Source: Candidatus Methanomethylophilaceae archaeon
Lineage (GTDB): Archaea; Thermoplasmatota; Thermoplasmata; Methanomassiliicoccales; Methanomethylophilaceae
NCBI GenBank assembly: GCA_944320495.1
Contig: CALUHR010000008.1
Span: 42,249-106,248, forward strand
DNA length: 64,000 bases
Reading direction: 5' to 3'
The notes beneath the pieces are model-generated. The model made no database searches. It was not told where the DNA came from and saw only the letters and a program-made list of their open reading frames with translations. The first letter of the stretch is position 1. Every line of letters starts with the position of its first letter. The translations under genes and the position numbers were made by a program. This document shows, one piece after another, positions 7,904 through 62,976 of the stretch.

Positions 7904-9193
7904 ATGGGGGATCTCATGGTGACGGGCACGGCATTCTTCGAAGCGGCCGCCGCCTACAACGATGCACCGGTGAAGAGCGGATTGTGCTCCATATGCAAGG
8001 GCGCCCACAGGCTGTGCGGCAAGGACCGCTGCCCCCTGATGATCAAGTTCTACTCGCAGCAGAAGACCCGGCCGCTCATAGACGCCAAGGACCTGGCCGG
8101 CTCAAGCCCACCGTCCGTCTTCGTGGGACGCTACGGATACCCGAAGGTGGACATCGGACCCCTGGTCCCGCCGGAGTTCGGTGACACCTCCGTAATGGGG
8201 AGACCTGAGATGTGGGTCGGGAAGTCGATAGACGAGATCGTCGACATGCGCTTCCGCCTGGTGAGGGGGAAGTACCGCATCGACGCCACCGACTTCGCGA
8301 AGTACGGGCGCATGGTGGACGCGGTCCAGGAGGTGGCGCTGACCGAGCGCCCCATAGACATAGAGACCACCTTCTCCCAGAAGCCCCGCGGCAGGGTCGT
8401 CCTGGACGATGACATCGAGCCCTTCGGTCCTTCGGCCAGGATGGAGGCCATGTCCATAGGCAACGGGAGGTTCGAGAGGAACCTGGAGAGGTCGTTCTAC
8501 GACACCGACATGCGCGCCGTGGACGCCGTGGTGTCGGCGTACAGGGGAGGGACCCTGATCTCCGAGATCCAGAAGGCCTTCTCTGTTGGAACGATGGGGA
8601 CCGGCAAGCGCAGGCGCTTCGTCCCCACCAGATGGAGCATCACCGCCGTCGACGACATCATAGGCAAGGACCTGCTGAAGACCACCAGGTGGAACCCGAC
8701 CATCGACGACTTCAGGCTCTACCTCTGGGAGGAGCTGGACAACAGGTGGGCCATCCTCCTGATGCCCTGCACCTGGAGGTTCGAGCTCATAGAGGCGTGG
8801 TATCCCAACACCACCTGGAACCCCACCGGGAAGACCATAGACGTCATCCACGACAGCGAGTTCTTCGACGGCAGGACGGAGTACGCCCACATCGGAGGAT
8901 GCTACTACGCGTCAAGGATGGCGGTCAACGAGCTGCTCATTAAAGAGGGGAGGACCGCAGGTGCCGTCATCATGAGGGAGGCCCATCCCGGATACGTTAT
9001 GCCCGTCGGGGTCTGGAACGTCAGGGAGAACGTCCGCGCCGCTCTGAAGACGGAGCCCCTCCATTTCGAGACCTACGACCAGGCGATGACCCGTGTGGAG
9101 CAGATGATGGACATCAAGCGCGACGGATGGATCGCCAACTCCGACGTGATGAGGGACTGGCTCGTCCAGAGGAGGATTGAGGACTATTACCGA
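7904..9193 (+). CDS. nreA: Nre family archaeal DNA repair protein with C-terminal PIP box
   Basis: N-terminal CxxC..C..C, GSSPPSVFVG, PTRWSITAVDD, GGCYYA; ends QRRIEDYY then CGA 9191-9193. Standard code runs on to 10225. Start may be ATG 7916. Confidence 0.88.
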
Positions 9194-9974
9194 CACGACC
9201 CTCGGCGACTTCTCCGGAGAGAGGCTGGAATGGGACGGTCCTTTCCGGATAGTGGAGTGCGGCAGGGCGCTGTCCCCATCCGGGCTGGACGAGATGGACT
9301 ACGCCCTGAACCCCTACGGGGGATGCGAGCACGGCTGCATCTACTGCTACGCCCCGGGACACACCCATTCGGATCTCGCGGGATGGAGGGTCGTCCGCGT
9401 CAAGAGGAACGTGATCGACAGGCTGTCCAGGGAGCTGCCCTTCGCGGACGGTATAATCGGCATAGGCACGGTCACCGATCCGTACCAGGCCGCAGAGGGC
9501 AGGTTCCGCCTGACCAGGGGATGCCTGGAGGTCCTGGCCTCGAGGGGCCGGAGGATCCACATCCACACCAAATCGGACCTCGTCCTCCGCGACATCGACA
9601 TCCTGTCGGGGATGGACTGCGTCGTCGGGATCACGTTCACCGGCGTCGATCCGAGGGTCTCGAAGATGACCGAGCCAGGCGCCCCGCTGCCCGAGGCGAG
9701 GCTCCGGGCGATCACCGGCCTCTTGGACGGCGGGGTGCGGACGTACGCCCTGGTCGCCCCCACCATGTCGACCGCCGAGGGGCACGAGGCGGAGATCATC
9801 GATGCCCTCCGTTCCACGGGGGTCCGCCGCGTATACGTGGAACCCCTCAACCTCAGGCTTGTGGACACCACGCGTCTCGACAGGATGGGCATAACCCCGT
9901 CCCCCAAGGCTGTCGCGGAGATGGCCAGACTCTGCCGCGAGGCTGGCATCCTGGGCATGGGCGTGGTTCGTCGA
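9177..9974 (+). CDS. Radical SAM protein, SplB/COG1533-like
   Basis: NPYGGCEHGCIYCYA (CxxxCxxC), TVTDPYQ, IHTKS; CGA 9972-9974, TGA two codons later (9980); TTG start uncertain. Confidence 0.85.
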
Positions 9975-10373
9975 TATTGAGAACCATTATGAATCGCGAT
10001 CGTTTCAATCAGACATCTGGGAATTGCGCCATTGCCTTCAGATTGCGAGGGTCGGAAGGGTTCCTCGATGGACTGGAGAACGGCGATGGAGTTCGTGGGC
10101 GCCACTTACGAACTGATCATCCTGTGCTTCGCCTATGGTTCCCCGAACCACTCCGCCCAGTGTGCCAGAGGGGATTGGGCTGTTGCACGGCCAGATCTCC
10201 ATGGTCTCCATGTACTACATGTTGAGGACGATCAAACCCTGCTGTTCTTCAAGATCTCTGACCATCTCGGCAGGAATCCGGCCACCGTAAAGATCCCCCG
10301 GTCTCGATATACGGGTGTTTCGCCCCAAGAGGTGTAAGAAGGGAACGACCGACAGATCGCCGCCGGCCAGTTT

Positions 10374-10741
10374 TCAGTGTATGCGATCAATCCTCGAGAC
10401 GATCTTCCACTCGCCGTTTTTACAGGCATTTCCGTGAAGGGCGGAGCATTCATCTCTACATTGTAATGCGCGCGAACGCGGCCGAGCCCTCGATTTCAAG
10501 GACATCAATGCACGTCATCGCATCGGGAACCGCCCAGGTCTTGTCCACCGAGTCGAAGAGAGATTGCATGAATCCCCGGCAAGCTCCCCGTTCACGTAGC
10601 CTCAAAACCGCCTCCTGGTCAAACGTTTTCCCGAGGAGGGTGGTGTCACAGCCCCTTCATCCGTCGGAGTAAAATCTGCATTGCCTTCACGACTTCCTCG
10701 AAGTCCGATATCTTGTCCGAATCCATCACCTTCGTATCCAT
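10374..10741 (-). pseudogene. Frameshifted NTF2-like/lumazine-binding family gene
   Basis: Fragments in shifting frames (MDSDKISDFEEVVKAM; TFDQEAV; GYVNGELAG; SLFDSVDK..IDVLEIEGSAAFARI; KNGEWKIVSRI) align by eye with the intact paralog at 12069-12443. Confidence 0.7.
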
Positions 10742-10767
10742 GCTGACTAATAGGATTCAGGTGACAC

Positions 10768-10789
10768 GCGGGGTGCAGGGCACACCCGC
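10768..10789 (-). terminator. Imperfect GC hairpin just downstream of the flavodoxin CGA
   Basis: gcggggtg...cacacccgc stem beginning 2 nt after the CGA at 10791-10793. Confidence 0.35.
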
Positions 10790-10790
10790 A

Positions 10791-11423
10791 TCGTTCGCTT
10801 GGCGGCATGATGAAGTGCGTCCAGAGGTGGGGCTCATAGACGGGCTTCTCGGTTCCCGCCATCCTTCCGGCGTTGATGCACTTCAGGAGCCACGCCATGT
10901 TCTGGGCGAGCGTGCGCATGGTCTGCAGCCCCTCCTCGTCCCTGCGGACGTCTTCGGGGGTGAAGCCATGGACCTGGTTCCAGTATTGTGATGGGACCAG
11001 CGGCATGTTGCAGATCGTGAAGTACTTGTTCAGGCGGTCGAAGGCCGCGGAAGCCCCGCCCCTGCGGCAGGACACGACAGATGCTCCGAGCTTGCCGGCC
11101 ATCCTCGCCGCATTGGAATAGAAGAACCTGTCCGCGAATGCGCAGACCTGACCAGACGGGCCAGCGTAGTACACAGGCGAGCCCAGAACGATTGCGTCGA
11201 ACTCGTCCAGCCTCTCCGCCAGGACGTTGACGTCGTCCTTGATCGAGCACCTGCCCTTCTTGGCGCAGTATCCGCAGTCCCTGCATCCAGCGGTGTCGTT
11301 CTTGATGTGATAAATCTCCGACTCGACGCCCTCCTTGGTGAGTGTTTCCGCAATCTCCTTCAGGGCGGTGTAGGTGCAGCCGTGCTCCTTGGGGCTGCCG
11401 TTGATAAGTAGAACCTTTGCCAT
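10791..11423 (-). CDS. Flavodoxin family / iron-sulfur flavoprotein (NADPH-dependent FMN reductase fold)
   Basis: LINGSP, GCRDCGYCAKKGRC, GSPVYY, RRGG; family-typical end THFI then MPPSE-CGA. Standard code runs to 10602, into the pseudogene. Confidence 0.88.
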
Positions 11424-13082: not shown

Positions 13083-13592
13083 TTGTCGAAGGAACTTATC
13101 GCATTCTACTCAAGGGCCGACGAGAACTACTTCGCCGGTTCCTACAGATACGTGGACGTCGGGAACACCGAGATTGTCGCCGGAATGCTCCAGGAGCTCA
13201 CCGGGGCCGACATTTTCAAGATTGAGCAGGCGAAGCCCTACTCCAAGGACTACAACACCTGCATCGAGGAGGCCAAGGAGCACCAGAGGAGGGACGCGCA
13301 CCCCGAGCTGAAGTCCTGCCCGAAGAGCATCGACGGGTACGACACGATCTACCTAGGCTACCCGAACTACTGGGGGACGATGCCCATGGCCGTCTTCACC
13401 TTCCTCGAGAGGTACGACTTCACAGGCAAGACCATCCGACCCTTCTGCACTAACGAGGGCAGCGGTCTCGGCAGTAGCGTCTCCGACATCAGTAGCCTCT
13501 GCCCCGGGGCCAACATCGAGAAAGGCCTGGCCATCACAGGCGGACAGGCCAGGGGTTCCCGCCCCTCCCTCGAGCGCTGGCTCAAAGGATGA
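13083..13592 (+). CDS. Flavodoxin (Flavodoxin_4-like); contains an internal CGA at 13437-13439
   Basis: GNTEIVA, YLGYPNYWGTMPMAV, PFCTNEGSGLG; TTG start. Would be truncated if CGA terminates. Confidence 0.8.
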   Translation: MSKELIAFYSRADENYFAGSYRYVDVGNTEIVAGMLQELTGADIFKIEQAKPYSKDYNTCIEEAKEHQRRDAHPELKSCPKSIDGYDTIYLGYPNYWGTMPMAVFTFLERYDFTGKTIRPFCTNEGSGLGSSVSDISSLCPGANIEKGLAITGGQARGSRPSLERWLKG

Positions 13593-16985: not shown

Positions 16986-17061
16986 CCCCTGGGACCCGAA
17001 CACGGGCCCTCGACAATCCTTTATAACGGCGGAGCCGATGCGTCTGCGGGATGGATGCACA

Positions 17062-17835
17062 ATGCGCGCAGCGCTATACGCCAGGGTCTCGACGGACGAC
17101 CAGGCGGTCGAGGGTTTCTCGCTCGACGCCCAGGTCAAGCGCCTCGAGGCCTATTGCAGGGTCCGCGGCTGGGAGGTCGGCGGGATCTACAGGGACGAGG
17201 GGTTCTCCGGCAGGAACACCAAGCGTCCGGAGTACGAGAGGATGATGCGCGAGTCCGACTCGTGGGACGTCCTCCTCGTTCTGAAGATGGACCGTATCCA
17301 CAGGAACAGCGTCAACTTCGCCCGCATGATGGACGACCTGCGCGACATGGGCAAGGAGTTCAACTCGGTCCAGGAGAAGTTCGACACCACCACCGCCATG
17401 GGACGGTTCGTCATGGACATCATGCAGAGGATCGCCCAGCTGGAGAGCGAGCAGATCGGCGAGAGGACGTTCATGGGCATGGAGTTCAAGGCCCGCAACG
17501 GCACCGGAAACCTCGGCTCCGGCCACCCGTACGGATACGTGTACACCGAGCACGGCCTGGAGGTCGTGAAGGATGAGGCGCATACGGTGCGCGCGATCTA
17601 CAACATGTACGTAAGGGGCTCCACCATGGAGGACATCGCCGGATTCCTCAACAGCGCCGAGATCCCCGCCAAGAAGGGCGGCAAGTGGAACAGGCAGTCC
17701 GTCTGCAACATCCTCCACAACCCGCTCTACGTGGGATACTCGGAGTGGAACGGCATCCTGCGCAAGGGCGAGCAGCAGCCCATCGTCGAGATGGCGGTCT
17801 TCGAGAAGGTCAACGGGCCGTTGGAGATCCAGCGA
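17062..17835 (+). CDS. Serine recombinase (resolvase + recombinase domains), copy 1
   Basis: ALYARVST, DEGFSG, KMDRIHRN; CGA 17833-17835 overlaps the next ATG. Standard end 17856. Confidence 0.92.
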
Positions 17836-18692
17836 TGCGTGCGGCCATATACGTGAGGGTCTCCACCGAGGAGCAGGCCGCCGAGGGGTACTCCATCGAG
17901 GCCCAGAAGGAGCTACTCCAGGACTACTGCATCGTCGAGGGGTGGGAGGTCGCCGGCGTCTACGAGGACGACGGATTCTCCGGAAGGAACGACAAGCGTC
18001 CCGCCTACCGCAAGATGATGTCGGAGATGGACCTTTGGGATGTGGTCGTCGTCATCAAGATGGACCGTATCCACAGGAACAGCCGCAACTTCATGTCCAT
18101 GATGGACACGCTCACCAAGCATGGGAAGATGTTCGTGTCCTCGTCCGAAGCATTGGATACGACCAACGCCCTCGGGAGGTTCGTGGTCGACATGATACAG
18201 AGGCTCGCCCAGCTGGAGAGCGAGCAGATCGGCGAGAGGACGTACATGGGCATGCGCGAGAAGGCCGAGACCCTCGAGGCCGTCCAATCCGGTAAGAGGA
18301 CCATGGGCTTCACGCCGCCGTTCGGCTACCGTCTTGAGGACGGGGCACTCGTCGAGGACGAGGGGGAGCTCCCGATCGTCAGGCGCATGTTCGCCGAATA
18401 TGCCGAGGGCAGGCCCATGGATGCGATATGCTTCGGCCTCAACCGCGACGGGATACTCACCCGCAGGGGCAATCCCTGGAACAAGCGCAACCTCGCCAAC
18501 ATCCTCCACAACCCCGTCTACGCCGGGTACATGAGATGGGAGGACATCCTCATCCGCCACGATGCGGAGACGGTCCTCTCGCCGGAGCAGTTCAACGGCG
18601 TGCAGGAGCGCATCGCCTCCAGGATCAGGGACCCCTCCAAGAGGGGCGTGAATCTCCTTCCAACAGAGTCAGATTATGCGACGGGGATGCGA
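17835..18692 (+). CDS. Serine recombinase, copy 2
   Basis: AIYVRVST, DDGFSG, KMDRIHRN, TPPFGYR; CGA 18690-18692. Standard end TAG 18710. Confidence 0.92.
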
Positions 18693-18908
18693 ACCGGACG
18701 AGCCGGTTAGTTAACGGAGAACGTTCGGTGCAAATATCCCATATTATAAATAATGTATCCGAAAAAGTCCATTTGTTGACGTCTCAATCTCCATTGTCTG
18801 GCACATGCCTCTGGATGTCTATGCCTGTACGCATGCGCCACATATGGTATTAAATAGTGATTACGTCGAATCATTCCCCGGGTCCTAGACCCAATAGGAG
18901 GAAAACAA

Positions 18909-19433
18909 ATGACTGACGAATGCAAAACCATCGACCCGACGGCCTTCGGCCTGTTCTTCGTGGCCGTTGTGTCCCTTCCACTCGCCCTGGCCGGATTCTT
19001 CGGCTACATGGGCAACGAGTGGAACGCGACCATCATGGCTGGCGTCGGATCTCTGCTGATGGTAAACGGATTCTTCATTCTTCTCGCAGCGCTGTACGCC
19101 TACAAAGCCGGCAGCAACTTCGGATTCGTCGTATTCGGCCTCGTCTCCATGGGAGTGTTCTATGCCGGATACGGAGGGGGAGACCTCTGGATCAACGTCA
19201 CCTTCGGAATCATATTCCTGATCTGTCTGATCTGGTCCTACCGCGCAAAGACGCTGAAGACCCTGACGTTCATCCTGCTGACCACCGCCCTTGTGTTCAT
19301 CGCCAACGGCTGTGTTATCGAGACCGGTGCCGAGTGGTCCTGGCTGTTCCTCGGAATCGCCGCCATCCTCAACTTCATCCTCACTCTGTACCTGGCTTTC
19401 GCGCTCGCCGACGAGCACATCCGCTGTGTCTGA
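18909..19433 (+). CDS. Multi-pass membrane protein, possibly SatP/YaaH (GPR1/FUN34)-like
   Basis: GGAGG RBS; N-terminal DPTAFGLF resembles NPAPLGL; about 6 TM segments. Family call is tentative. Confidence 0.6.
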   Translation: MTDECKTIDPTAFGLFFVAVVSLPLALAGFFGYMGNEWNATIMAGVGSLLMVNGFFILLAALYAYKAGSNFGFVVFGLVSMGVFYAGYGGGDLWINVTFGIIFLICLIWSYRAKTLKTLTFILLTTALVFIANGCVIETGAEWSWLFLGIAAILNFILTLYLAFALADEHIRCV

Positions 19434-19507
19434 TCGGAGGACCTCAAACCCCTTACCGGCCTCTGGCCGGGACATCTTTATTTAAGCGTTCTCAATCACC
19501 GACCCTC

Positions 19508-19603
19508 ATGAAGAAGGAAATGAAGATCAAGATCGGTGCCTACTTCATGGTCATCATCATGGTCGTCGTCGTTGTAACGGCAGCCGCCTCCGCCCTGATC
19601 TGA
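19508..19603 (+). CDS. 31-aa single-TM small protein
   Basis: MKKEMKIKIGAYFMVIIMVVVVVTAAASALI; TGATG overlap with the SDR start. Confidence 0.5.
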   Translation: MKKEMKIKIGAYFMVIIMVVVVVTAAASALI

Positions 19604-20355
19604 TGATCGCCGTCGTCACCGGGGCATCGTCGGGCATCGGGGCCGAGTTCTGCAGGGCCCTGGACGGGGAGGGGCTGGATTCCATCTGGATCATCGCCAG
19701 GAGAGCCGACAGGCTGGAGGCCCTGGCATCCGAGCTCTCCACCCCCTGCGTCGTAATCCACGCGGATCTCACCGACAGGAAGCAGCTGTCCGAGCTCGTC
19801 GGACGCATAGGATCCTCCGGCGAGAGGGTCGACTACCTGGTGAACTGCGCCGGAGTCGGCAGGTTCGGAGAGACCTGGGAGCTCTCATCGGAGGAGACGC
19901 TGTCCATGATCGACCTGAACGTCTCCGCCCTCACGGAGATGTGCCGCGGATGCATCCCCCGCATGGAATCCGGATCCCGCATCATCAACGTCTGCTCCGC
20001 ATCCGCGTATCTTCCGCTGGAGCGCCTCAACGTGTATTCCGCCACCAAGGCGTACGTGCGCGCGTTCTGCAACGCCCTCGGAAGGGAGCTAAAGACCAGA
20101 GGCATCACGGTATTGGAGGTCTCCCCTGGATGGGTGGAGACAGATTTCATCCCGCTCTCCAGGTCCACAGGCGACGTTCCCGAGACTGTCTTCAAGCACA
20201 CCGTTAAGGCTCGCGACGTCGCCGTGAGGGCCATCGCCGACGCCAAGCACGGGAGGAAGCGCTCGATATGCGGCGCGTACAACAGGCTCCAGGTCTTCGT
20301 GTGCACCCACATGCCTCGCATGGCATCATACGTCTGGGGAAGGTCCCTGCTGTGA
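19603..20355 (+). CDS. Short-chain dehydrogenase/reductase (DltE-like)
   Basis: VTGASSGIG, NCAG, YSATK catalytic motif. Confidence 0.93.
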   Translation: MIAVVTGASSGIGAEFCRALDGEGLDSIWIIARRADRLEALASELSTPCVVIHADLTDRKQLSELVGRIGSSGERVDYLVNCAGVGRFGETWELSSEETLSMIDLNVSALTEMCRGCIPRMESGSRIINVCSASAYLPLERLNVYSATKAYVRAFCNALGRELKTRGITVLEVSPGWVETDFIPLSRSTGDVPETVFKHTVKARDVAVRAIADAKHGRKRSICGAYNRLQVFVCTHMPRMASYVWGRSLL

Positions 20356-20957
20356 CGACGGTCCTCCGCGAGTTCAGGGAGGGGGACTGCAAACCCATAT
20401 CCGCGATAATGTGCGACGTCTGGTCCATGGTGAGCTACGGCGCCGATGTCGCCATGCCCGGGTCGAGGATGTACTGCTGCCAATGCGTCCTCGGGTCGTC
20501 GTTCATCCGTGTGGCCGAGGTCGACGGGAGGATCGTCGGATGCGTCGGGGCCAGATACGGGAACGAGAGGGTCGATGCACCCTGGGCCGAGAGGATGCTG
20601 CGGCAAGAGAGGGATTCCTTGGCGAACTCCGAGGACGGGATGCGGATGATCGCCGAGTTCGAGTCCTACGATTCCATAGACAGGGACCTCGGCATCAGTA
20701 CCGAGATCGACACCGATGCGGAGCTCACCATACTCATCCTTTCCGAGGGTTGCAGGGGACTCGGACTGGGCAGGATGATGTTCAACGCCGCCTGCGATTA
20801 CCTTCGCTCCAAGGGCGCCGGGAGCATGATGCTGTACACCGACACCGACTGCAACACAGGGTTCTACGATGCCCTCGGCGCAGAGCGCGTGGCAACCTCA
20901 GGAATGATGTGCCTGGGGGAGCCGCTCGGAATGTTCCTTTACAGATATCCGCTGCGA
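20352..20957 (+). CDS. GNAT acetyltransferase
   Basis: GTG start overlapping the SDR stop; CRGLGLGR acetyl-CoA motif, YTDTDCNTGFY; ends MFLYRYPL-CGA. Standard end 21131 overlaps the convergent gene. Confidence 0.85.
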
Positions 20958-20964
20958 GGAGTCA

Positions 20965-22053
20965 TCGGAATCCGAACAGAGCCTTCGCATTGTCGACATG
21001 CTCCTCCGCATCGAGATGGAACGGACACCTCGAGGTGCACCTGCCACAGTGCAGACAGTCGGAAGCGTGCTTCGACAGAGCCCTGTAGTGCTCCCAGGCC
21101 ATCTCGTCGCCAACGGCGAACAAGTCGCTGAACTTGTTGACCTTCCCGATGTCGATGCCTGCGGGGCACGGGAGGCAGTGGTTACAGTAGACGCACTGGT
21201 CCTACATGTCCGCCGCCGTCAGGCCGCCGATGAACGAGTAGTCCCTCTCCTCCCTAGAAGCGTCTAGGTACGAGAGCATAGCCTCGAGCTGTCCGACTGA
21301 GCCTATTCCCGGGACCACGGACACTGCCCCGGGGCGGTCCAGCGCGTACTGAATGCACTGCGCCGGGGTCATCGCCCTCCCGAACGGGGAGGTCTCGGCA
21401 TCCATCAAGATGCCTCCCCCATAGGGCTTCATCACGACTATCCCGATCCCCCTGCGCTCGCAGTCGCGGTAGAGCTCCAGCCTCTCGGGGTCCATCACGA
21501 GGCCGTTGTCCCCGGCCACGAAGTCATAGGTGGGATTGAGGCTGAGCATGAAGTCGTCGACAACCGTTTCCTCGATGAAGCGCCTGCATATCTCTGGGGT
21601 GTGAGACGTGAACCCGATGTTGTCCACGCGCCCCTCGTCCTTCCATTCGACCAGCATGTCGTACAGCCCATCGGACATGATGCGCTCGTAGTCCTGGGCC
21701 TCGTCGACGCAGTGGAAGAGCAGCAGGTCGGCGTGATCGAGACCGTACTTCCTCAGCTCGGTCTCGAAGGACTCGCGGCACTCCTCGGGGTCCCTCGTGG
21801 CCGCGTACTGACCTCCTGGGTAGTGTACGCCGGTCTGCAGCTGGAACACCATCCCGTCTCCGTGCTCCCTGACGGCCTCCCTGATGGCGGGAGCGCAGGG
21901 GTCGTCATACATGGAGGTCTCCATGAAGTTGACGCCTGCGTCCATAGCCTTCGATACGATGGTGTGGACATCGTCACCCGCATCCCTGAGGAAGCCAGAT
22001 CCAAGACCCAGTGCGCTGATCCTTTTACCGCTACGAAGTCTCCTGTACTCCAT
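20965..22053 (-). CDS. Aldo/keto reductase with 4Fe-4S domain; in-frame TAG at 21202-21204 (putative Pyl)
   Basis: Paralog of 15882-16985; the frame continues past TAG as DQCVYCNHCLPCP...CLHCGRCTSRCP, ending GF-CGA-TGA. Confidence 0.88.
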
Positions 22054-22166
22054 GGGAACACCTACTAGTGACTGCATGTCAGCTATCTCCCGTATAATTA
22101 CTATGTGGTCACGCTCACGAGAAGACGACATCGATATAACCGCACATAGCGTCCACCTCATCAGAC

Positions 22167-23366
22167 ATGGGGCAGGACATGTGGTGGCTGATGCACGGCG
22201 ACATATCCGTCGCCTCGGTTCACATCGACAGATACGGTCATCTGACATCATTGGGAGAGATATTCGATGAAGATCATCTGCCAGTCGGTGTGAAGACCGG
22301 TGACAGGGAGCACACCCTCGAAGGACTCGATCGCTGGTGGTCGAAGCGCGCGATACCCATCTCAAGACCCGGCGTGTCAGCCATGTTGGAATCCATGGGG
22401 ATCGCATCCACGGAATCGCTTCAGATGATGTCCAAGGGACTGGGCCTCTCGGACTCCTATTGGATCCGTCCGGAAGGATCGGACCTGTCATGGTCGGACG
22501 TGAACTTCCACGATAACGATTTCTCCGAGGAGGTCGGCAACGCCCTGTTCAACCATGGCACGACCGACGTCCTGAACTTCGACTCCCCGGACTCCTCCTC
22601 GGACGGCAACCTCAGGAAGAGATGGGTGATCGAGGATGGGGTGAGGATCCTGATGAAAGGCGGGAGCGGCCAGATGCAGGAACCGTTCAATGAGGTCCTT
22701 GCATCAGAGATCATGCGTCGCCTGGACGTACGGCACGTCGACTACAATCTGAGATGGGTTGATGGCGAGCCGTTCTCCGTCTGTCCAGCGTTCACCGACA
22801 GCCGCACCGAGCTCGTGCCTGCCTGGTCCGTGCTCGCGACGTGCAAGAGAGAAGATGGGGAGACGCTTTACGACTTCACGAGACGCTGCTTCGAGTGCTG
22901 CGGACTGAAGGACCCCACCGCTTCCCTTGAGAGGATGATTGCCGTTGATTTCCTGATAGCGAATGAGGACAGGCACCTCGGGAACTTCGGTCTGCTCCGC
23001 GACCCCGAGACTCTGAAAACCAAGGGGTTCGCCCCGCTGTACGACAACGGGGCCTCGCTGGGGCATCGCGTGATCACGCTCTGGATAGAGGAGGGTTACG
23101 ACCTGATCTGCCGGCCGTTCAAGGTCACCCACGGAGAACAGATCCATCTGGTCAGGGACCTCGGATGGTTCGACCCCGACAGGCTGGAGGGCATGGACGA
23201 CTTCGCCAAGGATCTGTTCGATGGGTCAAAAGGGTTCGTGGACGAGCGCAGGAACAAGGCGATCATCGGATTCCTACAGAGAAGGATCGACAAGCTCGCC
23301 CAGTACGCCGAGAGTCCGGACTTCCGGGACGACCGGCACCTGGACCTGAGAGTGGTAAGCGGCTGA
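22167..23366 (+). CDS. HipA-like kinase (HipA_C domain), copy 1
   Basis: SSDGNLRKRW, LMKGG, EPFNEVLASEI, IANEDRHLGNFG, APLYDNG. Confidence 0.85.
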   Translation: MGQDMWWLMHGDISVASVHIDRYGHLTSLGEIFDEDHLPVGVKTGDREHTLEGLDRWWSKRAIPISRPGVSAMLESMGIASTESLQMMSKGLGLSDSYWIRPEGSDLSWSDVNFHDNDFSEEVGNALFNHGTTDVLNFDSPDSSSDGNLRKRWVIEDGVRILMKGGSGQMQEPFNEVLASEIMRRLDVRHVDYNLRWVDGEPFSVCPAFTDSRTELVPAWSVLATCKREDGETLYDFTRRCFECCGLKDPTASLERMIAVDFLIANEDRHLGNFGLLRDPETLKTKGFAPLYDNGASLGHRVITLWIEEGYDLICRPFKVTHGEQIHLVRDLGWFDPDRLEGMDDFAKDLFDGSKGFVDERRNKAIIGFLQRRIDKLAQYAESPDFRDDRHLDLRVVSG

Positions 23367-23818
23367 TGGTCGAGGCTATTCGGCGATCTCGTCCTGGACT
23401 CGTCTGTCTTCCTGTGACCCTGTCTCTTCGACTTCATATTACCCGCGGATGGCCTAGCTGACCAACTTCTCACGGAGAACCGTTTGTTCCCTTCCTCATC
23501 CGTAGCCGTGTGGGCCTCAACACAGGACATACGGTCACCGTGCCTGGGGCACTCTGTCTCGGGGCAGTCGCAGTTCAGTTGAGCTCCTGAGCCATGCGAG
23601 ATGGGATGGAGCATCAGGATAGACCTGTTTCCCGGACGGCGTATCTCGTCTTTCGTGTGCCGACACCTGCTGTACGGACTCCTGAACAGAGTTGATATTG
23701 TTATCATACAATGCTTAATGACAATTTTTGATTAATAAATTGGATTAAGATATCACATAAATTAATAATGTATGGTGATTGAGAAGATAGGATAAACCCT
23801 CGCGACATACGGTCATCC

Positions 23819-24988
23819 GTGTCGGAGGGACGTTTTCAGCTCATGCAAGGGGACCACCGGGTCGCAGAGGTGTGCATCTCCGACAACGGCATTATGACGG
23901 AGCTACGTGAGATGTTCGATCCGGAGAGGATGCCCTGGGGGACCATTGGCACCGACCCCGGCGATACCATCAGAAGGCTCGGAGAATGGTGGGGATATCG
24001 CTGCATCCCGAGGAAGAGGAACATCCAGGACGCACTGGGTCGCCTCGGATTCAGCTCGAGCGAGGCGCTCATGACCGCTGGCCTGGCGGTCAACATGACG
24101 GACCGCTACTGGATCCGCCCGAACGGGAGCGGCCTGTCGTGGGACGATGTCAGCCCCCACACCAACGACTTCTCCGAGACGCTGGGCAGGACGCTGCTCG
24201 GTAAGGGGGACGGGTTCGAACCGTCTCCGGACTGCGCCACCGACGGGATGGTCCCGAAGATGTGGACATCGGAACGTCGCCTGCTCAAAGGCGGGACGAC
24301 CCGCTGCAGGCAGCAGCCGTACAACGAGGTCCTGGCCTCGGAGGTCATGAGACGCCTCGACGTGGAGCACGTCGATTACGATCTGAGGCGCATCGACGGG
24401 AAGGTTGTCAGCTCGTGCCCGTGCATCACCTCAGAAGGGGTGGAGATGATACAGGCCAGATGTCTGATGATGACCCGCCCGATGGACAGGTCTAAATCCA
24501 TCTACCACCACCTCATGGAGAGATGCGGGAGCATAGGCCTCGTGGACCCGAAGGACTTCGTAGACAGGATGCTCGTCGTCGATCACATCATGGCGAACAA
24601 CGACCGGCACTACAACAACTTCTCCATCCTCAGGGACCCGGAGTCGCTAGAGGTCCTCGGCTTCGCCCCCATATACGACACGGGCTCGTCCCTGGGCTAC
24701 GACCTCCGGGTCGGGGACATCTCTGGATCGGAGACGAGGGGCAGGACGTTCAAGGCACGTCTCGACGACCAGTTGCTGCTCCTCGGGGACACGGACTGGA
24801 TCGATCTGGACGCTCTCGAGGGGATCGACTCCTTCGCCCGTCGTCTGATGGGAGGCTCGGAAACGGTCTCGCCCGAGAGGGTGGAAGCGGTCGTAGAGCT
24901 CCTGCTGTCCCGTATCGAGTCGCTGAGGGACCGCATCGAGAATCCACGCGGATTCCGCGACGAGCCGTCCGAGGACATACCGGTCCGA
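23819..24988 (+). CDS. HipA-like kinase, copy 2
   Basis: DGMVPKMW, LLKGG, PYNEVLASEV, MANNDRHYNNF, APIYDTG; ends EDIPV-CGA. Standard end 25123 reads into AT-rich DNA. Confidence 0.85.
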
Positions 24989-48024: not shown

Positions 48025-51000
48025 TCGAACCTCCGGCAGCCAGTCCCCGCCGAGCCTCACGTCCTCGACCCTGCCGTTGAGATTCCTGTAGGTGAGCGTC
48101 ACCCCCATGCCCCCGTCCACGGTCACCGTGGTCAGGACACCGGCGCGGTTGGACATCGGGTCCCTCTCGCGCATGAGGACGGCCAGGGAGGACCATCTTC
48201 CCGACATCGCCCTGTCGCGGATCCCCGCGAGCCGCGACGGGTCCATCTTCGATACCGCGGCGATGTTCGTCTCGAACACCATCGAGACCCTCCCTCCGCG
48301 GGTGTCGAGGTCGAAGCAACAGTACGGGCCGTCCTCCTCCCAGGTCCCGTCCACAGGCTCGAACATCCCGCGGAAACGCTCCGCACCCTCTGGGTCCGTC
48401 AGGATGCAGTCGATGGTCCTGAGCTTGCCGTCGCTCGCCGGGTCGTCACCGGCCTGGAGGACCGCGTCCGCTCCGGGGTCGATCCAATGGAACTCGAAGC
48501 GGTCGAGATCGTATCCCGCCTCGATCTCCGAGGCGAGGGTCTCGAACTCGTAGTCGCCGGGCACCAGCTCCAGCCCCCTGCGGACCGCGTCCATCGCCGC
48601 AACCCTGTCGCCGAAGTGGGCGCGCAGCTTGGCGACCTGCAGCCACACCCATGGATAGCACGGCTCCTCGACGGCCCCCCTCTCGGCGTATACCAGCGCC
48701 TCCTCGAGGCGACCGCAGTACATCAGGGCGCAGGAGTAGCGGTAGAACCATGTCCCGCAACCCGATGCCGCGGATTCCGACGAGGGCATCCACCGTGCAG
48801 CGCGCCAGTAGTGGACGTAGTCCCCGATGTTCAGGCAGGCGTAGGAGAACCAAAGCGCCACGTCCAGGTCCCTCTCGACTTGTCTCGAGCTGAACCTCCC
48901 CGACCTTATCCCGTCGTTGAGGGTTTCTACCAGGTCACCGAGCATCGCGTGATACCGCCCGTCGATCTCCCCCTCATAGGAGGAGAGGCGCTCGACGTCC
49001 TCCTGCGACAGGATGGGCTCCGCGGGATCCTCGGGAACGGTGCGGTCCATGACCCTGACCGAAGGGCAGTCCCTGCGGAAGCTGTGGAAGCTGGCCCATG
49101 CCAGGTCAGTCCCCTCGAAGAAGCGGGATGCGGCGGAGAGCGTGCGCTCCAGGTCCCAGGCCATGAGGTCGATGTATCCGTACCGGGTCCCGGTTGCTCC
49201 TCCGATGATGCGTACGGAGTCCTCGCCCGCCTCGGCGACGATGGCTTCGGATGCCGCGTCGCGGAAGCGGAGGATGTCCCCGGAGCGGTCTTCCCCGGCG
49301 AAGCCGTCGAGCGGGAATATCAGGAACCCCGCCACGGCGCCGTCGGCGTGGAGCATGTCCGCCGAGGCGTCCTCGCAGGAGATGTAGCTCCCCACGAGCT
49401 TGGCGCAGGAGGTGACGCCGACGACCACGTCGGCCCTCCAGTCCGCCTCTGGATCCTCCACGGGGTCGGACCTGTAGACCCTGCTGACGTTCAGGTACGA
49501 GTCGGCGTCGATCTCCATGTTGAAGCCCATGTCGATGAGACGGTCCCTGAGCTCCGACAGGCGGACGGTGTCCCCCTCCGGGGCCTTGCCGACCACGTCG
49601 ATGCCGTCCAGGACCGACATGGCGGGGACCTCGCCGATGACCCTCTCCATCAGGTTGGCTACCATCCATCCCACATCGTCGGGTTCGGTGGAATATAGGC
49701 TGTCCAGCTTCCCGCAGTGCATCGTGAGCCTGACGAAGTCGCCGCTCCTCTCGATGGATACGTCCACGTCCTCAGGCGCTATCCTCACGCCGTCATGCTC
49801 GATCTCCATGCCGATGCCGGGAGGCCGGCCGGCGGTCACTCCCCATCTCCTCAGCACGTCCTCGGGCGCGCGCCTGATGAACTCGGAGATCTCGAACAGC
49901 CTCACCCTGTCCGCCTCCGGGGTCAGGATGAGATGGAACCTCTCGCCGTCATGACCGATCTCGAAGGCGACATCCCCGAACGTGATATCCAGTATCCCAT
50001 CGACCAGACCGATCAGTTCGCCCTCGACGACGGCACGGTCGGGATGGGCCAGGAGCCTCTCGATCTCGTCCATCTCCTCGGCGAACCTCCTCCATGTGAG
50101 CTCAGCGCGCTCGCGGAAGCATCTGTGGAAGCGGGGGTGCGCCAAACCGTTCAGACAGGATCCCAGCATCTCCCCCGCATCCGGATCGGTCTCGGCTGCC
50201 TTGGCGAAGTACGGAATCGCCTCCGGCTCCCTGTCCATCATGTAGTACGAGTATCCCATGCGGTAGTTCCAGAGCGGATCGTCCGACTTGGCTTCCCGGA
50301 TGGATTCGAGGATGGCTATGGCCTTGCGGAAGGGCTCAGGATCGTCCGGTCCGCCGATGTTGTTGTACGCCCTGGCGAGGATCCCGTACAGGTCGGGGGT
50401 CCTCTCGGACTCGGGCAGAGCCTCGATCGCCTCTATGATCCTCTTGTGGAGGCCCTCGACGTGCCAGCTCTCCAGCTGCTCCATCAGCGGGGATTGGTCT
50501 GCACCGGGGGAGGCGTCGCCGCCCGATGCCGCATCCCATGCGGGATCGTCCATCACCTCCTCGACGGAGATGTCCATGCGGTAGAACGAGAGCATGTCGG
50601 AGAACGTCTCCCTGATGGAATCGACATCGGACCCCGTCATCCGGTAGCCCAGCTCGTCCTGGAGCTTCAGCACGCTTCCGGCCCTGGACCTCAGCTGGTC
50701 GATCATCTCCTGGCGGGACCAACCGCCCGTCGGTATCCAGAAGCTGAGGCCCCTGAAGATGTGCTGCGTACGCCTGAGGAAGTCCTCCGGGACCGATCCC
50801 CCGTCGGCCATCGCCCTGCAGAAGACGTATTCTTTCGGGAAAGGGCGCTCGTCTTGGAACGGCCAGAGGTCGGCCTCGGGCACCTCGGCGGACGCCTCTT
50901 TCTGGATGCCGTCCTCGGTGACGGGCTCATCGAGACGGACGATCCTCCTTATCAGGAACCTTCCGGGGATCTCACCGTCCGGGCCGGTCTTTATCGGATT

Positions 51001-53038: not shown

Positions 53039-54486
53039 ACCTGGAGGAGCTCGAGGCGGCCTACGGGTACGGCGGGTCGCGCGAAGAGGTCATGAGGGTC
53101 GTCAGAAAGATAGACCCGTCAGAGACGGCGCCGCACGGAGTCACCGCCTTGCACATCGCCGCCCGCCAGGTCGACCCCGAGACGATGGAGGCCCTCCTGG
53201 ATAGGGGATTCCGTGCCGGCGCCACCGACGAGTACGGCAACACCCCGCTGCATATCCTCGCGGTGCAGAGATGGGACGGCCGCGTGTCGAAGATGGCCGA
53301 ATGCACTGACCTCCTGCTGACCCACCGCTGCCCTCCGTCGAGGAGGGACGATCGCGGGAGGTGCTTCTATCACATAGCAGCGCAGATGCACAACCTGCCG
53401 ATGATTTCCGTCATCGGCCAGAGAATGGTGCGCTGCGACGCCCTCCTCGAGGACTCGGGGATGAACGCCCTGCACGTGCTGTGCGATTCGGCATCGAGCT
53501 ACGACTACATCCGCGAGAGCAGACCCGAGGAGTTCGAGGAGAAGGACCGCATGTGCCGCCGCATGGCCGAATGGCTGGTCGGATGCGGCATCGATCCGGA
53601 GGCGGAGACCAGGATCGGCAGGAAGGCCATCGACTTCGCCGTCGGGAACAGGATCAAGCTGACCTCCTCTTTCCTCGCCGGGAACGACGATGCTGTCTCG
53701 GGAGGCATGGACCTCCACCAGGCCGTAACAGTGGACGATGCGGAAGCCATCTCGGCGATACTCTCGGCCGGAGCCGACCCCGATGCGCTCTGCGACAGAC
53801 CGGGCGACTATCTCGGGATGACCCCGCTGATGGTGGCCTGCCGGAGGATGGCCAGGGAATCGGCGGAATCGCTTATCCGTGGAGGAGCATCCGCGTCCTA
53901 TGCGGACGGCCGCGACGGCAGGACCGCCCTCTACCATCTCCTGAGGGCCCTCTCCTCGACGGTGGGGACGGGAAGCAACGCCAGGGACTCGGGCAGCTTC
54001 CTCTCCATGCTGAGGATGGTCGCGGAGGCCCAGGGCACGCCGGATCTCCCGGTGAGCGATGAGGAAGGTCCCGCGCTCTGCTTCCTGGCGGGGAACGACA
54101 GGCTGGGACACACCTCGGACGGGAGGTCCGTGAGGAGCATCGCCTTCGAGACCCTCGCTTCCATGGGCGCGGATGTCGATGCCAGGGACAGCCACGGCCG
54201 CACGCCTCTGATGCTCGCTTGCGGGATCCCGGGGCCGGAATCGGAGGGCATCGTGTCCACCCTGATGGAGCTCGGGGCGGATTGCGACGCCCGCGACGGG
54301 GACGGCACCACCGCCCTCATGAGGGCGGCATCCATCCCGGGGAACGCGGGCATCGACCTCATCAGGGCGATGCTGGACTTCTGCGTGCCCGACCCAGGAC
54401 TGAGGGATTCGAAGGGCAGGGACGCGCTGGAGATGGCATCGGACGCCGGCAACGCCGACGTCGTCCGCCTTCTCCTCTCCCTGCGA
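53035..54486 (+). CDS. Ankyrin repeat protein
   Basis: GVTALHIAA, GNTPLHIL, GMTPLMVA, GRTPLMLA; ends VRLLLSL-CGA, 21 nt before the convergent gene's end. Standard end 54636. Confidence 0.88.
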
Positions 54487-55964: not shown

Positions 55965-57179
55965 TCGGACCATCAGCTCCATCACCGATTCCATGCCCGC
56001 GGAGGCCGCCATCTCGCCGGCGGTGACCCCCTTATCGTCGGGTATGTCGTATCTGGCGCCCTTCTTCACGAGCAGCCTGGCCGACTTCTCGTCCCTCCAG
56101 GAGATCGCGTGGTGAAGGGCCGTCCTGCCGTGCGAATCGCAGGCGTCCAGTGCGGCGCCTGCCACCACGAGGGGCTTGACCACGGCCCCGTGGCCGTTGG
56201 AGACGGCCGCCATCAGAGGCATGGTGCCGTCGTTCATCGCGATGTTCGGATCCGCCCCGAGGTTCAGCAGGGCCTCCGAGAGCCCGCCGTCCTGGTAGCG
56301 GTAGGATGTCAGCACGAGGATCAGAGGGGTCATGCCCCTGTCGTCGGCTACGTCGAGGCATCCGACCTTCGACAGTATGGCGATCTTGCGTGAAACTACA
56401 GCCTCCATGCCCGGCACGGATTGCCATTGGCGGCAGACGCTGACGGGGGGCTGCATGACCGCGTAGTGCGCCGCCGTGCGTCCGGAGTTGTCTGTCCGGG
56501 ATGTGTCCGCACCCCTGCCGATCAGCAGATCGGCGGACGCATCGTCCCCGATGAGACAGGCGGCGCAGAGGGGCGTTACTGAATCGAAATCCACCGCGTG
56601 TCCGTATCCCTGACGGGCCTCCGAACCGGGTGCGTCTGGATCGGCGCCCGTGTCCAGGAGCGCCTCGGCCAGATCCCTGTGTCCGAAGAGGACCGACAGG
56701 TGCAGGGGCGTGGCGCCGTATGCGTTGCAGACCATCCAATCTCCGGCATCGCCGGCGAGACGGGCCACGGCGGCCATCTCGGCCTCGCGGTCCCCCGCCC
56801 ACCCGGACCTCTCCATGGAGGCCAGAAGATGGAGGGCGTTGGAACCGGCGCGGTTGCACGATGTCAGGTCGGCGCCCGCCTCGGACAGACCCTTATAGAC
56901 CTCAGGACGGCAGATGCAGTGGGAGGCGCACATCGTCGGCAGCGTCTCCCCGTCGGGGAACCTGACACGGAGATCGAAGCCCCTGCCGGCGAGCATGCCG
57001 ATGAAATCGGTCGCCCGATCGGATTTGAGGGCCCTCTCGATCAGGCCCTCGGCGGCGTTCGCCTCGTCATCGTCATCCATGTCGAATCCTGATATCATCT
57101 CGGCAGCATCCGAAGCGGCCTGCTCCGCCCTGCCCTGGAAGAAATCCAGTTCGATCCTCCTTATCGCATCCCCATCCAT
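55965..57179 (-). CDS. Ankyrin repeat protein
   Basis: GATPLHLS, GRTAAHYA, GMTPL, GRTALHHA; ends VMELMV-CGA. Confidence 0.87.
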
Positions 57180-57198: not shown

Positions 57199-57807
57199 TC
57201 GTCTCTGCACAGCATCCACCCTCAGGCCCGAGACCAGTTCGACGAGACGGTCCACCTGGATGTCGATGGCCTCATCCACGGCCTCCCCGTAGAGGAACGG
57301 CAGCGAATGCTTGCCCGTCCGTCCTATCCAGACGATCGACATCAGCATGTTATAGAACACACGGGGATCGAGACGGCTGACCGGGACGCCGAGCAGATTG
57401 AGGACCTCGGCGAAGAGCACGATGCGGTCGTTCTTGAATCCGGCGAACTCCTCGTCGCTCAGCAGCGTCCTGATGTACGTCTGGTCGTCGAAAGTGGCGA
57501 TGAACCATCTGCCGGACAGCAGATCGTCCAGGGTGGTCCTCAGACCGTTGTCCGCGCCGTAGTTCCAGACGTTGGTTCTGAAGCATCCGAGCATGTCCTC
57601 CGACTGGAGGTGGAACATCTCGATTATCAGGGCGGCTTTCGACGGGAAGAACGAGTAGAAGAACGTCTTCGAGATCCCTTCGGGAAGATAGATGTCCTCA
57701 AGGCTGGTCTCCCTGAGACCCTTCTCGGCGAAGACCTCTGCGGAACGCCTCAGCATATTCATGCGGATGGCGTCGCGTTCCTCCGCAGTGTACGCCTTCC
57801 TGGACAT
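57199..57807 (-). CDS. TetR/AcrR family transcriptional regulator
   Basis: FAEKGLRETSLEDI..GISKTFFYSFFPSK; CGA end gives about 202 aa. Confidence 0.88.
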
Positions 57808-60755: not shown

Positions 60756-60929
60756 GCTCAGATGTAGCTCTCACGGTTAAAATGGGTTTCCCAGCATCCG
60801 AACGCGATTCCGGCGGTAAACGACCGAATCGTTCAATACACCGACGACAATCGGGCTTGCGGGATCTTCCGGATGATGAGGAACCGAGGCTGACCCGTGA
60901 TGAGCCCTATGAGTCCTGACGGGGTCCCA

Positions 60930-61466
60930 TCGCTGCTGCGAATAGTCCGACATACCGGTGTACCCCATGAAATCGGACAGCTTCATCCCGTTCTCCCATC
61001 TCATGATGTAGTACCCGCTGTCCGAGACCTCCAGCTTGGGCAGCCTGCGGTACAGCACGCTGTGCCTTCCCCTGTAGGCGTGGTCCGTGGGTATGGTGAA
61101 CAGACGCCACGGGTCTCCGCGCTGGGACTTCAGCCGGAAGGCGTAGATCGGGACGAGATGCGAGCGGCAGCAGTCAGCGAGCATGATGTCGGCCTGCTCC
61201 GTGAGATGCTGGTTCTTGCTGAAGTGGAGGACGCTGTCCCCGGAGCTCTTCACCTCGATGGGGAACGAGAAGTCCCATCTGAGAGCCACCAGGTCCACTC
61301 CAAGGGATCCGGCGGCGCGGATGACCATGAACGGGTCCGTGAGCATCGTCTGGTAGTTCGCCTTCTCCATGGCATCGCAGGTCTTCACCATCTTAGCTAT
61401 GGCCTTCTGGTCGCCCGTGAGGAGGGACTTCAGCTCGCGCTCGTAGACGTCGCCCGGTGGTGCCAT
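60930..61466 (-). CDS. Hjc-like PD-(D/E)xK Holliday junction resolvase
   Basis: YERELK, RAAGSLGVDLVA, IEVKS; ends DYSQQ-CGA. Standard end 60777. Confidence 0.75.
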
Positions 61467-61656
61467 GATGGTTGTCGATTCCCGATGCCATATTTAAAGA
61501 GAACAAGGGGGGTGCAGCGAAAACCCCCCTCCCTGGCGATCAAGAGATGATCTTGACAATCCTTTATCTCCCGATGTCAGATATCGTACCGAGGGATGCA
61601 TGGATGATCGGAACCACCGTCACATTCGCAAAGATGCACACTGGAGGGAGGCTCCG

Positions 61657-62280
61657 ATGCCGACCTGCCCCAAGTGCGGAGCCTACAACCCGGACAGTTA
61701 CGAGTTCTGCTCCAGATGCGGCGAGATGATGTCGCCCGTCGAGATGGGCGCACCCGTCTCCAGGAGATACGCCGCGGACCGTCCCGCTCTGCGCTACCTG
61801 CTCATAGTCCTGCAGATAGTCCCGTGCGTGCTGGGACTCTACCTGCTGTTCGGCACGAGGCTCGACATCACCGGCTTCTACGGATTCTTCTCCGATACGA
61901 TGTCCATAATGGAGATCCTCGACCAGGGCTGGTACCCCACCAGCATCTCCGCGTCCGGATTCACCATCATCTTCTGGATATCCGCCATACTCTTCATCGT
62001 GGGCCTCTCCGTCCCGGTGTTCCACATATTCGGATACGTCATGACCCTCGGAATGGCCATGGGCATGTCGGAGATGTACGTGTTCGGCTCCGACTCCATC
62101 ATCATAGTCGGGGCGGATGTCGGCGGCATGGAGATCCTGGCGGTCCTCGGCCTGCTCATGGGGATCGCGGCGCTGCTCCTGTGGTTCGCCGTCGTCGTGC
62201 GCGGACCCTGCGCCAGCATGCCCCTGAAGCTGAGGCTCGCATACGTGTGGACCGGCAGGGTCGGTGAGAGGGAGAGGCGA
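61657..62280 (+). CDS. Zinc-ribbon membrane protein
   Basis: GGAGG RBS, CPKCG..FCSRCG, four TM segments; ends GERER-CGA. Confidence 0.8.
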
Positions 62281-62976
62281 TCGCCTCGAGGACCTGTCCA
62301 CGACCCTGATGCTGTCCACATCGACCCCGCAGTCCCTGAAGATGGGATCCACGATGCGGGTGCTGTGGGCGATGTAGCTGGAGTGGTCGGCGCGCTTCAT
62401 GATGCAGAGACGACCGTCCTGGACGGATCCTGCTATGAGCTCGGTGTCCTCCCTGCGGATGCAGTCCCTGCTTCCGGCTATGACCGTCACAGGGCACGTG
62501 ATGCGCGCCAGGTCCTCCGGACGGATGTCCGGCTCGGTGAGCATCATGCGGACCAGAGGCTCGTCCCCGTGGAGCAGCCTCGTGAGGGTCATGCCCTTTA
62601 TCATCGAGGGGCGGGTGTTCGCCCCGCAGACGAAGAGCCTCGAGGGAACATCGGGGTGCTCCATCGCGAACAGTAGTGCCACGATGCCGCCGTCGCTGAA
62701 CCCGCATATGATGGGGTCCTCGATCCCGAGCTTGCGGATGAAGTCGTGGAGGTCGTCCGCCATGTCGGCGTAGTGGTACTCCCCGTCGAGCGGCGGGGAG
62801 CTCTGACCCTGGCCGCGGGAGTCCACCAGATACACCGTGAACGCCTGCTCCAGATAGTCGACGGCGCGGTCGAAGATCGTATGGTCCTCGCCGTTGCCGT
62901 GGAGCATAATCAGCGCCGGACCCTTCTTCCCGCGGACCTCGTAGTAGATGGACACGCCGTTGGTTGTTACCCTCAT
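62281..62976 (-). CDS. Alpha/beta hydrolase
   Basis: LHGNGED, DSRGQG, GFSDGG nucleophile elbow; ends DRSSR-CGA. Standard code overlaps the whole convergent gene. Confidence 0.9.

Follow-up and report, generated by a model that had tools for sequence, protein, structure and literature searches.

Arginine codon CGA as a very probable translation terminator in a methanogen genus of the Methanomethylophilaceae

Can a codon that specifies arginine in the standard code mark the ends of genes in a cellular genome? The question is raised by a 64,000-nucleotide stretch of DNA (hereafter the window; contig CALUHR010000008.1 of assembly GCA_944320495.1, positions 42,249 to 106,248 of the forward strand) from a Candidatus Methanomethylophilaceae archaeon, for which an earlier note had proposed that CGA acts as a stop codon in 25 genes. 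The host belongs to the Methanomassiliicoccales, family Methanomethylophilaceae, in a genus that includes Ca. Methanoprimaticola sp. MG2 and UBA480. We examined the window, its source genome (G000; 1.77 Mb, 61.5% G+C) and relatives, which carry the other G-numbers used here as genome labels. Our results indicate that CGA very probably acts as a terminator in this archaeon, and the presence of CGA at gene ends as a terminator-like codon is strongly supported across the window, the genome and the genus.

Read with translation table 11, the window yields long overlapping open reading frames (ORFs), such as one of 773 amino acids (aa) at 7904-10225. When TAA, TGA and CGA were taken as stops and TAG was read through, it resolved into 56 non-overlapping compact genes comprising 18,724 codons, with TGA at 27 of the gene ends, CGA at 25 and TAA at 4. 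All 25 triplets named in the earlier note are CGA and lie on the strands given there, and AGG, CGC, CGT, CGG and AGA occur internally as it had claimed, the other arginine codons being present 76 to 691 times apiece inside the 56 genes. Within the recognisable domains of these 18,724 codons there is only one CGA, in a Flavodoxin_4 domain at 13437, the same internal CGA that had been singled out before. Once CGA is treated as a stop, stop-start overlaps of the form CGATG become frequent in the window, a counterpart of the familiar TGATG.

The DNA downstream of these codons does not resemble coding sequence. At 13 of the 25 sites the tail beyond CGA is at least 40 codons long and the coding score (codon log-odds) collapses across the codon, for example from 1.32 to -0.97 at 9191, which bears out the earlier description of the tails as non-protein-like. 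No gene tested has a domain match that reaches the CGA; those to GNAT, FMN_red, ankyrin, Hjc, TetR, hydrolase, YgiQ and NreA all end upstream. Tails of 0 to 6 codons leave the sites at 9972, 17833, 18690, 42683, 45623, 20965 and 28568 ambiguous when taken alone, and at 27646 and 55965 the tail enters the following gene in the same frame; we take both of these same-frame cases to be genuine gene ends. When syntenic DNA of 12 congeners was aligned to the 25 genes, an ortholog with TGA, TAA or CGA between -6 and +7 codons was present at 20 sites, and at 11 of the 25 an ortholog stop fell at offset 0. No ortholog extending to the C-terminus was present in the congener DNA retrieved for 48025, 57199, 62278, 62281 and 20965. 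The possibility, raised at the outset, that orthologs might carry the same long tails can be set aside for these 20 sites, where orthologs stop at or near the CGA position. The sites are as follows, with ortholog offsets in codons relative to the CGA and coding scores given as before to after it.

9191-9193, plus strand: CGA end (codon 430) of nreA (429 aa); NreA profile match 41-406 of 417; tail of 343 codons; G011 TGA at offset 0.
9972-9974, plus strand: CGA near the end of a 265-aa gene, ambiguous; CGA TAT TGA, a one-codon tail; G011 has TGA 6 codons later.
17833-17835, plus strand: CGA end of serine recombinase 1 (265 aa); CGATG, next ATG at 17835; G009 CGA and G011 TGA at offset 0, G008 TGA at +1.
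18690-18692, plus strand: CGA end of serine recombinase 2 (285 aa); tail of 5 codons; G009 TAA at offset 0.
20955-20957, plus strand: CGA end of a GNAT acetyltransferase gene (229 aa); GNAT domain stops at residue 204-207; tail of 57 codons, score 1.05 to -1.12; G009 and G013 TGA at offset 0.
24986-24988, plus strand: CGA end of a HipA_C-like gene (389 aa); tail of 44 codons, score 0.69 to -0.47; G013 TGA at +1.
34424-34426, plus strand: CGA end (codon 563) of the ygiQ radical-SAM gene (562 aa); TIGR03904 match 1-557 of 558; CGATG with the next start; tail of 53 codons; CGA in G002, G009 and G010, TGA in G006, G013 and others, in near-identical context.
35993-35995, plus strand: CGA end of a 291-aa gene; tail of 12 codons; TGA, TAA or CGA at -4 to +1 in 10 of 11 orthologs, none near in G015.
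42683-42685, plus strand: CGA end of a 293-aa gene, TGA directly after; TGA or TAA at offset 0 in six orthologs, so that CGA, not the following TGA, is the homologous stop position.
43516-43518, plus strand: CGA end of an ArsR-type HTH gene (100 aa); HTH_20 at residues 16-65; tail of 90 codons, score 0.89 to -0.70; G013 TGA at +6.
45623-45625, plus strand: CGA end of a gene of about 739 aa; TGA at offset 0 in G008, G013 and G015.
54484-54486, plus strand: CGA end of an ankyrin-repeat gene (494 aa); repeats to residue 493; tail of 49 codons; G004 TGA at +1.
62278-62280, plus strand: CGA end of a zinc-ribbon gene (226 aa); tail of 131 codons, score 1.23 to -0.11.
10791-10793, minus strand: CGA end of an FMN-reductase gene (233 aa); FMN_red to residue 172; tail of 62 codons, score 0.94 to -0.72; G017 CGA at offset 0.
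20965-20967, minus strand: CGA, then TGA, at the end of a 398-aa aldo/keto-reductase-4Fe-4S gene; Pfam domains upstream.
27646-27648, minus strand: CGA end of a 257-aa gene, next gene in the same frame; G013 CGA at +1, G009 CGA at +3, G011 TGA at +5.
28568-28570, minus strand: CGA end of a 569-aa gene; tail of 6 codons; G004 TGA at -1, G013 and G006 TGA at -3.
30386-30388, minus strand: CGA end of a 303-aa gene; score 1.30 to -1.35; four orthologs with TGA at +1 to +3, G009 CGA at +3.
36726-36728, minus strand: CGA end of a Sel1/TPR-repeat gene (317 aa); tail of 301 codons; G004 TGA at +1, G013 CGA at +2.
39090-39092, minus strand: CGA end of an SF1 helicase gene (690 aa, one TAG read through); AAA_12 and UvrD_C_2 extend to residue 669; tail of 194 codons; G013 TAA at +4.
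48025-48027, minus strand: CGA end of a 1233-aa gene; tail of 9 codons, score 0.99 to -0.17.
55965-55967, minus strand: CGA end of an ankyrin-repeat gene (416 aa), followed 7 nucleotides on by another gene in this frame; G004 TGA at offset 0 in near-identical context.
57199-57201, minus strand: CGA end of a TetR-family gene (202 aa); tail of 41 codons, score 0.78 to -0.28; overlap with the next gene's start at 57215.
60930-60932, minus strand: CGA end of hjc (178 aa); tail of 50 codons; G013 TGA at offset 0, G008 and G015 TGA at +1.
62281-62283, minus strand: CGA end of an alpha/beta-hydrolase gene (231 aa); tail of 238 codons, score 1.05 to -0.09; Pfam matches within residues 14-125 only.
13437-13439, plus strand: internal CGA, codon 119 of a Flavodoxin_4 gene (13083-13592), inside PF12682 (residues 26-167).

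Homologs of the flavodoxin gene carry His or Val, not Arg, at the position of the internal CGA; the gene is probably a recent truncation, or else holds a read-through site. The convergent genes that end at 62278 and 62281 meet on a shared palindrome, CGATCG, in which each strand provides the CGA stop of the other.

The same pattern extends to the rest of the genome. In-frame CGA is scarce in the middles of 1388 long standard-code ORFs, at 0.87 per 1000 codons compared with 3.3 to 3.5 for CGT, CGG and AGA, and in 145 ORFs with tails of at least 20 codons the coding log-odds fall from 0.95 to -0.20 across CGA, while across control codons they stay at about 0.9 to 0.8. This depletion and the drop in score, absent for the control codons, exclude chance as an explanation genome-wide. 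Only 27 CGAs are flanked by coding signal on both sides, and most of these are boundaries between adjacent genes in the same frame. Under the standard code genes would end at TAA, TAG and TGA only; in this genome the coding signal ends at CGA, where orthologs have TGA or TAA. Approximately 377 of 1859 gene-like frames terminate at CGA, and in the window, which is rich in accessory genes, CGA makes up about 45% of stops, double its average share in the genome. A count of 316 TAG-ended frames was inflated by antisense shadow ORFs, and we did not use it as a figure of stop usage.

Comparison with relatives, both within the genus, for which our collection holds 62 species genomes, and in other genera of the family, showed which codons occupy the homologous positions, the tabulation that the earlier note had called for. 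Within two codons of G000 CGA ends, congeners have TGA 43 times, CGA 15 times and TAA once, and other genera have TGA 33 times, TAA 4 times and CGA once. Conversely, opposite G000 TGA ends, congeners show CGA 13 times, and in pairs such as G002 and G006 the exchange of CGA for TGA is the sole difference between the local sequences. Per-locus codon models built from 20-kb pieces of the relatives proved too noisy, with antisense shadow ORFs in their training sets, and were replaced by tallies made inside tblastn alignments. In coding sequence validated in this way, the genus has 0.21 CGA per 1000 codons, rarely aligned with Arg, compared with 0.74 per 1000 in other genera, where CGA is aligned with Arg in half of the cases. 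A standard code predicts CGA at conserved Arg columns as often as other rare Arg codons, which is not what the genus shows; a code in which a sense codon has become a stop predicts CGA at homologous stop positions, interchanging with standard stops, as observed here. The CGA fraction of stops also climbs with G+C content (1.3%, 8.3% and 10.7%), as would be expected if mutation pressure can turn TGA and CGA into one another at gene ends.

These comparisons bear directly on the most conservative explanations, namely that CGA is simply a very rare Arg codon and the long tails are real, or that it is a sequencing or assembly error for TGA. A tRNA-Arg(UCG) gene does exist, and a conserved Arg in the gene of the release factor aRF1 is encoded by CGA, as a rare Arg codon would allow. 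The tails, however, lack coding signal and cross neighbouring genes over as many as 343 codons, none of them contains a family domain, and orthologs stop where they begin. As for error, the genomes that show the pattern come from many projects and many assemblers, including G013, the assembly of strain MG2, at 420-fold coverage; dozens of genomes produced by different groups and programs share it, which excludes an assembly artefact, and a base-calling error would be unable to select a reading frame. We also considered a methylation-linked base-calling error at CGAT and rejected it, as the effect is frame-specific and present across assemblies. Both explanations therefore appear extremely improbable.

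If CGA terminates translation, what has become of the tRNA that should decode it? The earlier note had suggested that tRNA-Arg(UCG) was lost, as a sense-to-stop code would lead one to expect. The gene is nevertheless present in G000 (C13:413317-413390), with homologous loci L147-L185, and is retained in every genome of the genus that could be inspected, in each case with an abnormal anticodon arm. The 31-39 pair, which closes the anticodon stem, is mismatched in all 23 genus copies (A-A, C-A or U-C), leaving a stem of 4 bp, whereas it is properly paired in all 9 copies of tRNA-Arg(UCG) from other genera. Three genus genomes without a BLAST match have a different UCG tRNA, with C33 in place of the near-universal U33. 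An apparent loss from some complete genomes was a BLAST miss, and a covariance model located a UCG tRNA in all five. Rather than having lost the tRNA, then, the genus genomes examined carry it with a defect either at the 31-39 pair or at position 33.

Such a damaged tRNA raises the possibility that CGA is effectively unassigned, being decoded so slowly that the ribosome stalls and is released by rescue, through Pelota/ABCE1 or unspecific action of aRF1. The tRNA anomalies are consistent with this, as is the rarity of CGA throughout the family before any use as a stop, at 0.74 per 1000 codons in other genera, and a study in yeast treats eRF1 release at CGA as rescue of stalled ribosomes (PMC7379694). 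Rescue would, however, be a costly way to finish 20% of all genes, and about 45% of those in the window. Moreover, the sequence downstream of CGA resembles that downstream of TGA: the same-frame score over 40 codons is -0.47 after CGA and -0.55 after TGA, the next standard stop lies at a median of 26 and 28 codons, respectively, and the excess of backup stops is small. The CGATG overlaps, in turn, imply ordinary coupling of termination and reinitiation. On balance, we consider stalling and rescue doubtful as the explanation for CGA ends.

A dedicated terminator requires a factor that reads it, and we infer that this would be aRF1. The genome contains a single aRF1 gene, located outside the window (G000:C2:85942-87201, minus strand), whose product aligns without gaps to human eRF1 over the N-domain. 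A genus-specific change from Asp/Glu to Asn adjoins the equivalent of human eRF1 Glu55, and the YxCxxxF motif of the genus reads Y-R-C, with a native Arg that is permissive background only. We propose that this single factor recognises CGA as it does UGA and outcompetes tRNA-Arg(UCG), which would be kept but weakened by the broken 31-39 pair or by C33. TGA and CGA could then drift into one another at gene ends, and the weak tRNA would still decode CGA as Arg at very few selected sites. We consider it fairly probable that CGA is a terminator used beside TGA and TAA, with aRF1 winning over a weakened tRNA-Arg(UCG) and a few Arg sites being read through.

Two such sites are candidates, and the first lies in the release-factor gene itself. 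Arg78 of aRF1 is encoded by CGA in 48 of 51 genus species, and no other CGA lies in frame in the gene. The codon stands in the context GCT CGA CTC in G000, and the core CT-CGA-CT is invariant while the neighbouring codons vary synonymously; of the three species without CGA at this position, two have CGA elsewhere in the N-domain. Arg78 is conserved in the human, Aeropyrum and a third archaeal release factor, and other genera of the family mostly use AGG, CGT, CGC, AGA or AAG there. CGA is also found at Arg78 in 8 of 39 distinct aRF1 sequences of other genera (L119, L121, L123, L124, L131, L135, L136 and L137), far above CGA usage in the family, and the site may predate the genus or reach beyond it. 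CGA78 is, in effect, a conserved in-frame terminator early in the factor's own gene, the arrangement that characterises bacterial prfB. It could serve as a self-sensor, in that high termination activity at CGA would lead to less aRF1 being made.

The second site, also outside the window, joins gmhA and gmhB in one frame (G000:C13:193618-194718, minus strand). The junction codon is CGA in 29 of 30 congener species, the exception having AGA, and gmhB lacks an available start codon at the gmhA-CGA-gmhB junction; in one sub-clade the two are separate genes, with gmhA ending at TAA. We regard the junction as a candidate for programmed read-through, which would yield two products, GmhA alone and a GmhA-GmhB fusion. 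That CGA was purged elsewhere but kept in aRF1 and at gmhA-gmhB suggests a special decoding status for these two sites. The proposal that CGA is a stop is strongly supported for CGA as a terminator and fails for CGA as a pure stop, given these conserved in-frame codons. The context of the codon may also contribute: T follows 54% of terminal CGAs, compared with 30% for TGA, and CGATG overlaps account for 22% of terminal CGAs, while at both conserved read-through candidates C or G follows, unlike the T-rich terminators. This hints that context sets the efficiency of termination at CGA. To the broader scheme, in which CGA would be a regulated, context-dependent stop, aRF1 would sense its own activity, gmhA-gmhB would give two products and the stop set would be TAA, TGA and CGA with TAG as pyrrolysine (Pyl), we assign an even chance.

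The same observations can be set against a different mechanism, in which mRNA CGA is deaminated to UGA at gene ends by C-to-U editing and the standard code operates thereafter. Stop-creating editing occurs at some CGA codons of plant organelles, and we know of no mRNA C-to-U editing in archaea. Editing would account for homologous stop positions shared by CGA and TGA, the bias toward a following T could be an editing context, and the codon-recognition motifs of aRF1 are standard. It would leave unexplained, however, both the damaged anticodon arm of tRNA-Arg(UCG) across the genus and the in-frame CGA kept in the release-factor gene, and it would have to skip aRF1 and gmhA-gmhB yet act at hundreds of sites without a common motif. 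We therefore think it unlikely that editing produces these ends.

Several observations weigh against termination at CGA by aRF1 as we propose it. Termination is deduced here from DNA alone. A backup stop within five codons follows CGA in 23% of cases and TGA in 16.5%, an excess so slight that leakiness of CGA is not demonstrated. The two conserved internal CGAs could equally prove that CGA is still Arg, and the tRNA-Arg(UCG) gene is kept, which a clean reassignment would not need. The earlier note had expected an altered aRF1; genus-specific changes are indeed found, such as the one beside the Glu55 equivalent, but the NIKS and YxCxxxF motifs are intact, and none of the aRF1 changes is linked to first-base recognition. 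The Arg in YxCxxxF is not specific to the genus, as Aeropyrum also has it. Conservation of CGA in aRF1 reflects shared ancestry in part, and G037 has CGC in aRF1 and yet uses CGA at homologous stops.

The use of CGA coexists with an apparent second departure from the standard code in this genome. A TAG at 40161-40163 (minus strand) lies inside the AAA_11 domain of the 690-aa SF1 helicase, and another at 21202-21204 (minus strand) is codon 320 of the 398-aa gene that ends at 20965, between its Aldo_ket_red (63-258) and Fer4 (321-391) domains. The CGA at 20965, earlier attributed to a 52-aa ORF, is the end of this longer aldo/keto-reductase-ferredoxin gene with an in-frame TAG. A PylS gene is present at G000:C9:67854-68522 (260.8 bits, above the cut-off), so that Pyl machinery and TAG codons inside conserved domains occur together, as in the proposed Genetic Code 34, and TAG seems to be read as sense (Pyl). 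If our reading of CGA is also true, a stop set of TAA, TGA and CGA with TAG as Pyl would be a code absent from all tables.

One part of the window, at approximately 17000-28500, has tandem serine-recombinase genes (17038-18692), the HipA_C-like gene and G+C that falls to 55% at 24-28 kb, which suggests an integrated mobile element.

If CGA does terminate translation in this genus, sense-to-stop reassignment is possible in a cellular genome of about 1800 genes, and the genus offers intermediates of the process, with a tRNA retained but crippled and a few sites read through. It would also provide a natural system for examining first-base recognition of stop codons by an eRF1-type factor, and it suggests a new kind of release-factor feedback. 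In practical terms, standard gene callers must mis-annotate at least a fifth of the genes in a methanogen genus that is widespread in human and animal guts, producing fused or extended proteins, such as an nreA product called as 773 aa rather than 429 aa, and thereby skewing protein databases, pangenomes and stop-codon surveys of the family.

Sense codons are known to have become stops in organelles, as with AGA/AGG in vertebrate mitochondria (table 2), UCA in Scenedesmus mitochondria (table 22) and UUA in Thraustochytrium (table 23). To our knowledge, such conversion is accepted for mitochondria only, and CGA is not established as a stop codon for any free-living organism; we found no report in the literature searched of CGA as a stop in Methanomassiliicoccales. 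As in the organellar reassignments, the sense codon has vanished from gene interiors and shows up at gene ends. Unlike them, the case described here concerns a chromosome of about 1800 genes in a free-living (gut) archaeon, in which an altered gene for the cognate tRNA persists and CGA apparently still specifies Arg at a few conserved sites. A closer parallel for the aRF1 gene is bacterial prfB, the RF2 gene, which is autoregulated through an in-frame UGA and a +1 frameshift. Both genes carry, early in the reading frame and conserved across species, a codon at which the factor itself would terminate; in aRF1, by analogy, plain read-through by tRNA-Arg(UCG) would suffice, with no +1 frameshift.

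Among archaea, Genetic Code 34 was proposed in the same family, with all TAG codons read as pyrrolysine, and that work makes no mention of CGA (Kivenson et al., bioRxiv 10.1101/2024.09.30.615893), so that the change in CGA is an additional, separate deviation. A possible CGA stop has been raised for two hydrothermal-vent archaeal assemblies, where its stop function was not tested (Melnykov, bioRxiv 10.64898/2026.04.02.715157). As in our genus, CGA is missing there from recognisable domains; those unrelated archaea, however, have about 50% G+C, use CGG for Trp and lack a tRNA(UCG), whereas here tRNA-Arg(UCG) is present, CGG occurs at ordinary frequency (judged by frequency alone) and homologous stop positions show the use of CGA as a stop. 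In yeast, a release factor of the same family acts at this codon: eRF1/eRF3 compete with tRNA-Arg and measurably release peptide at CGA, and the UGA-biased eRF1 variants L123F/R/Y, altered at an 'x' position of YxCxxxF, terminate better at this codon (Wada and Ito, FEBS J 2018, PMC7379694). The aRF1 of our genus natively has Arg at the position of yeast L123R. In yeast, release at CGA is a minor misreading of a poorly decoded codon; in this genus, it is apparently the codon's main meaning.

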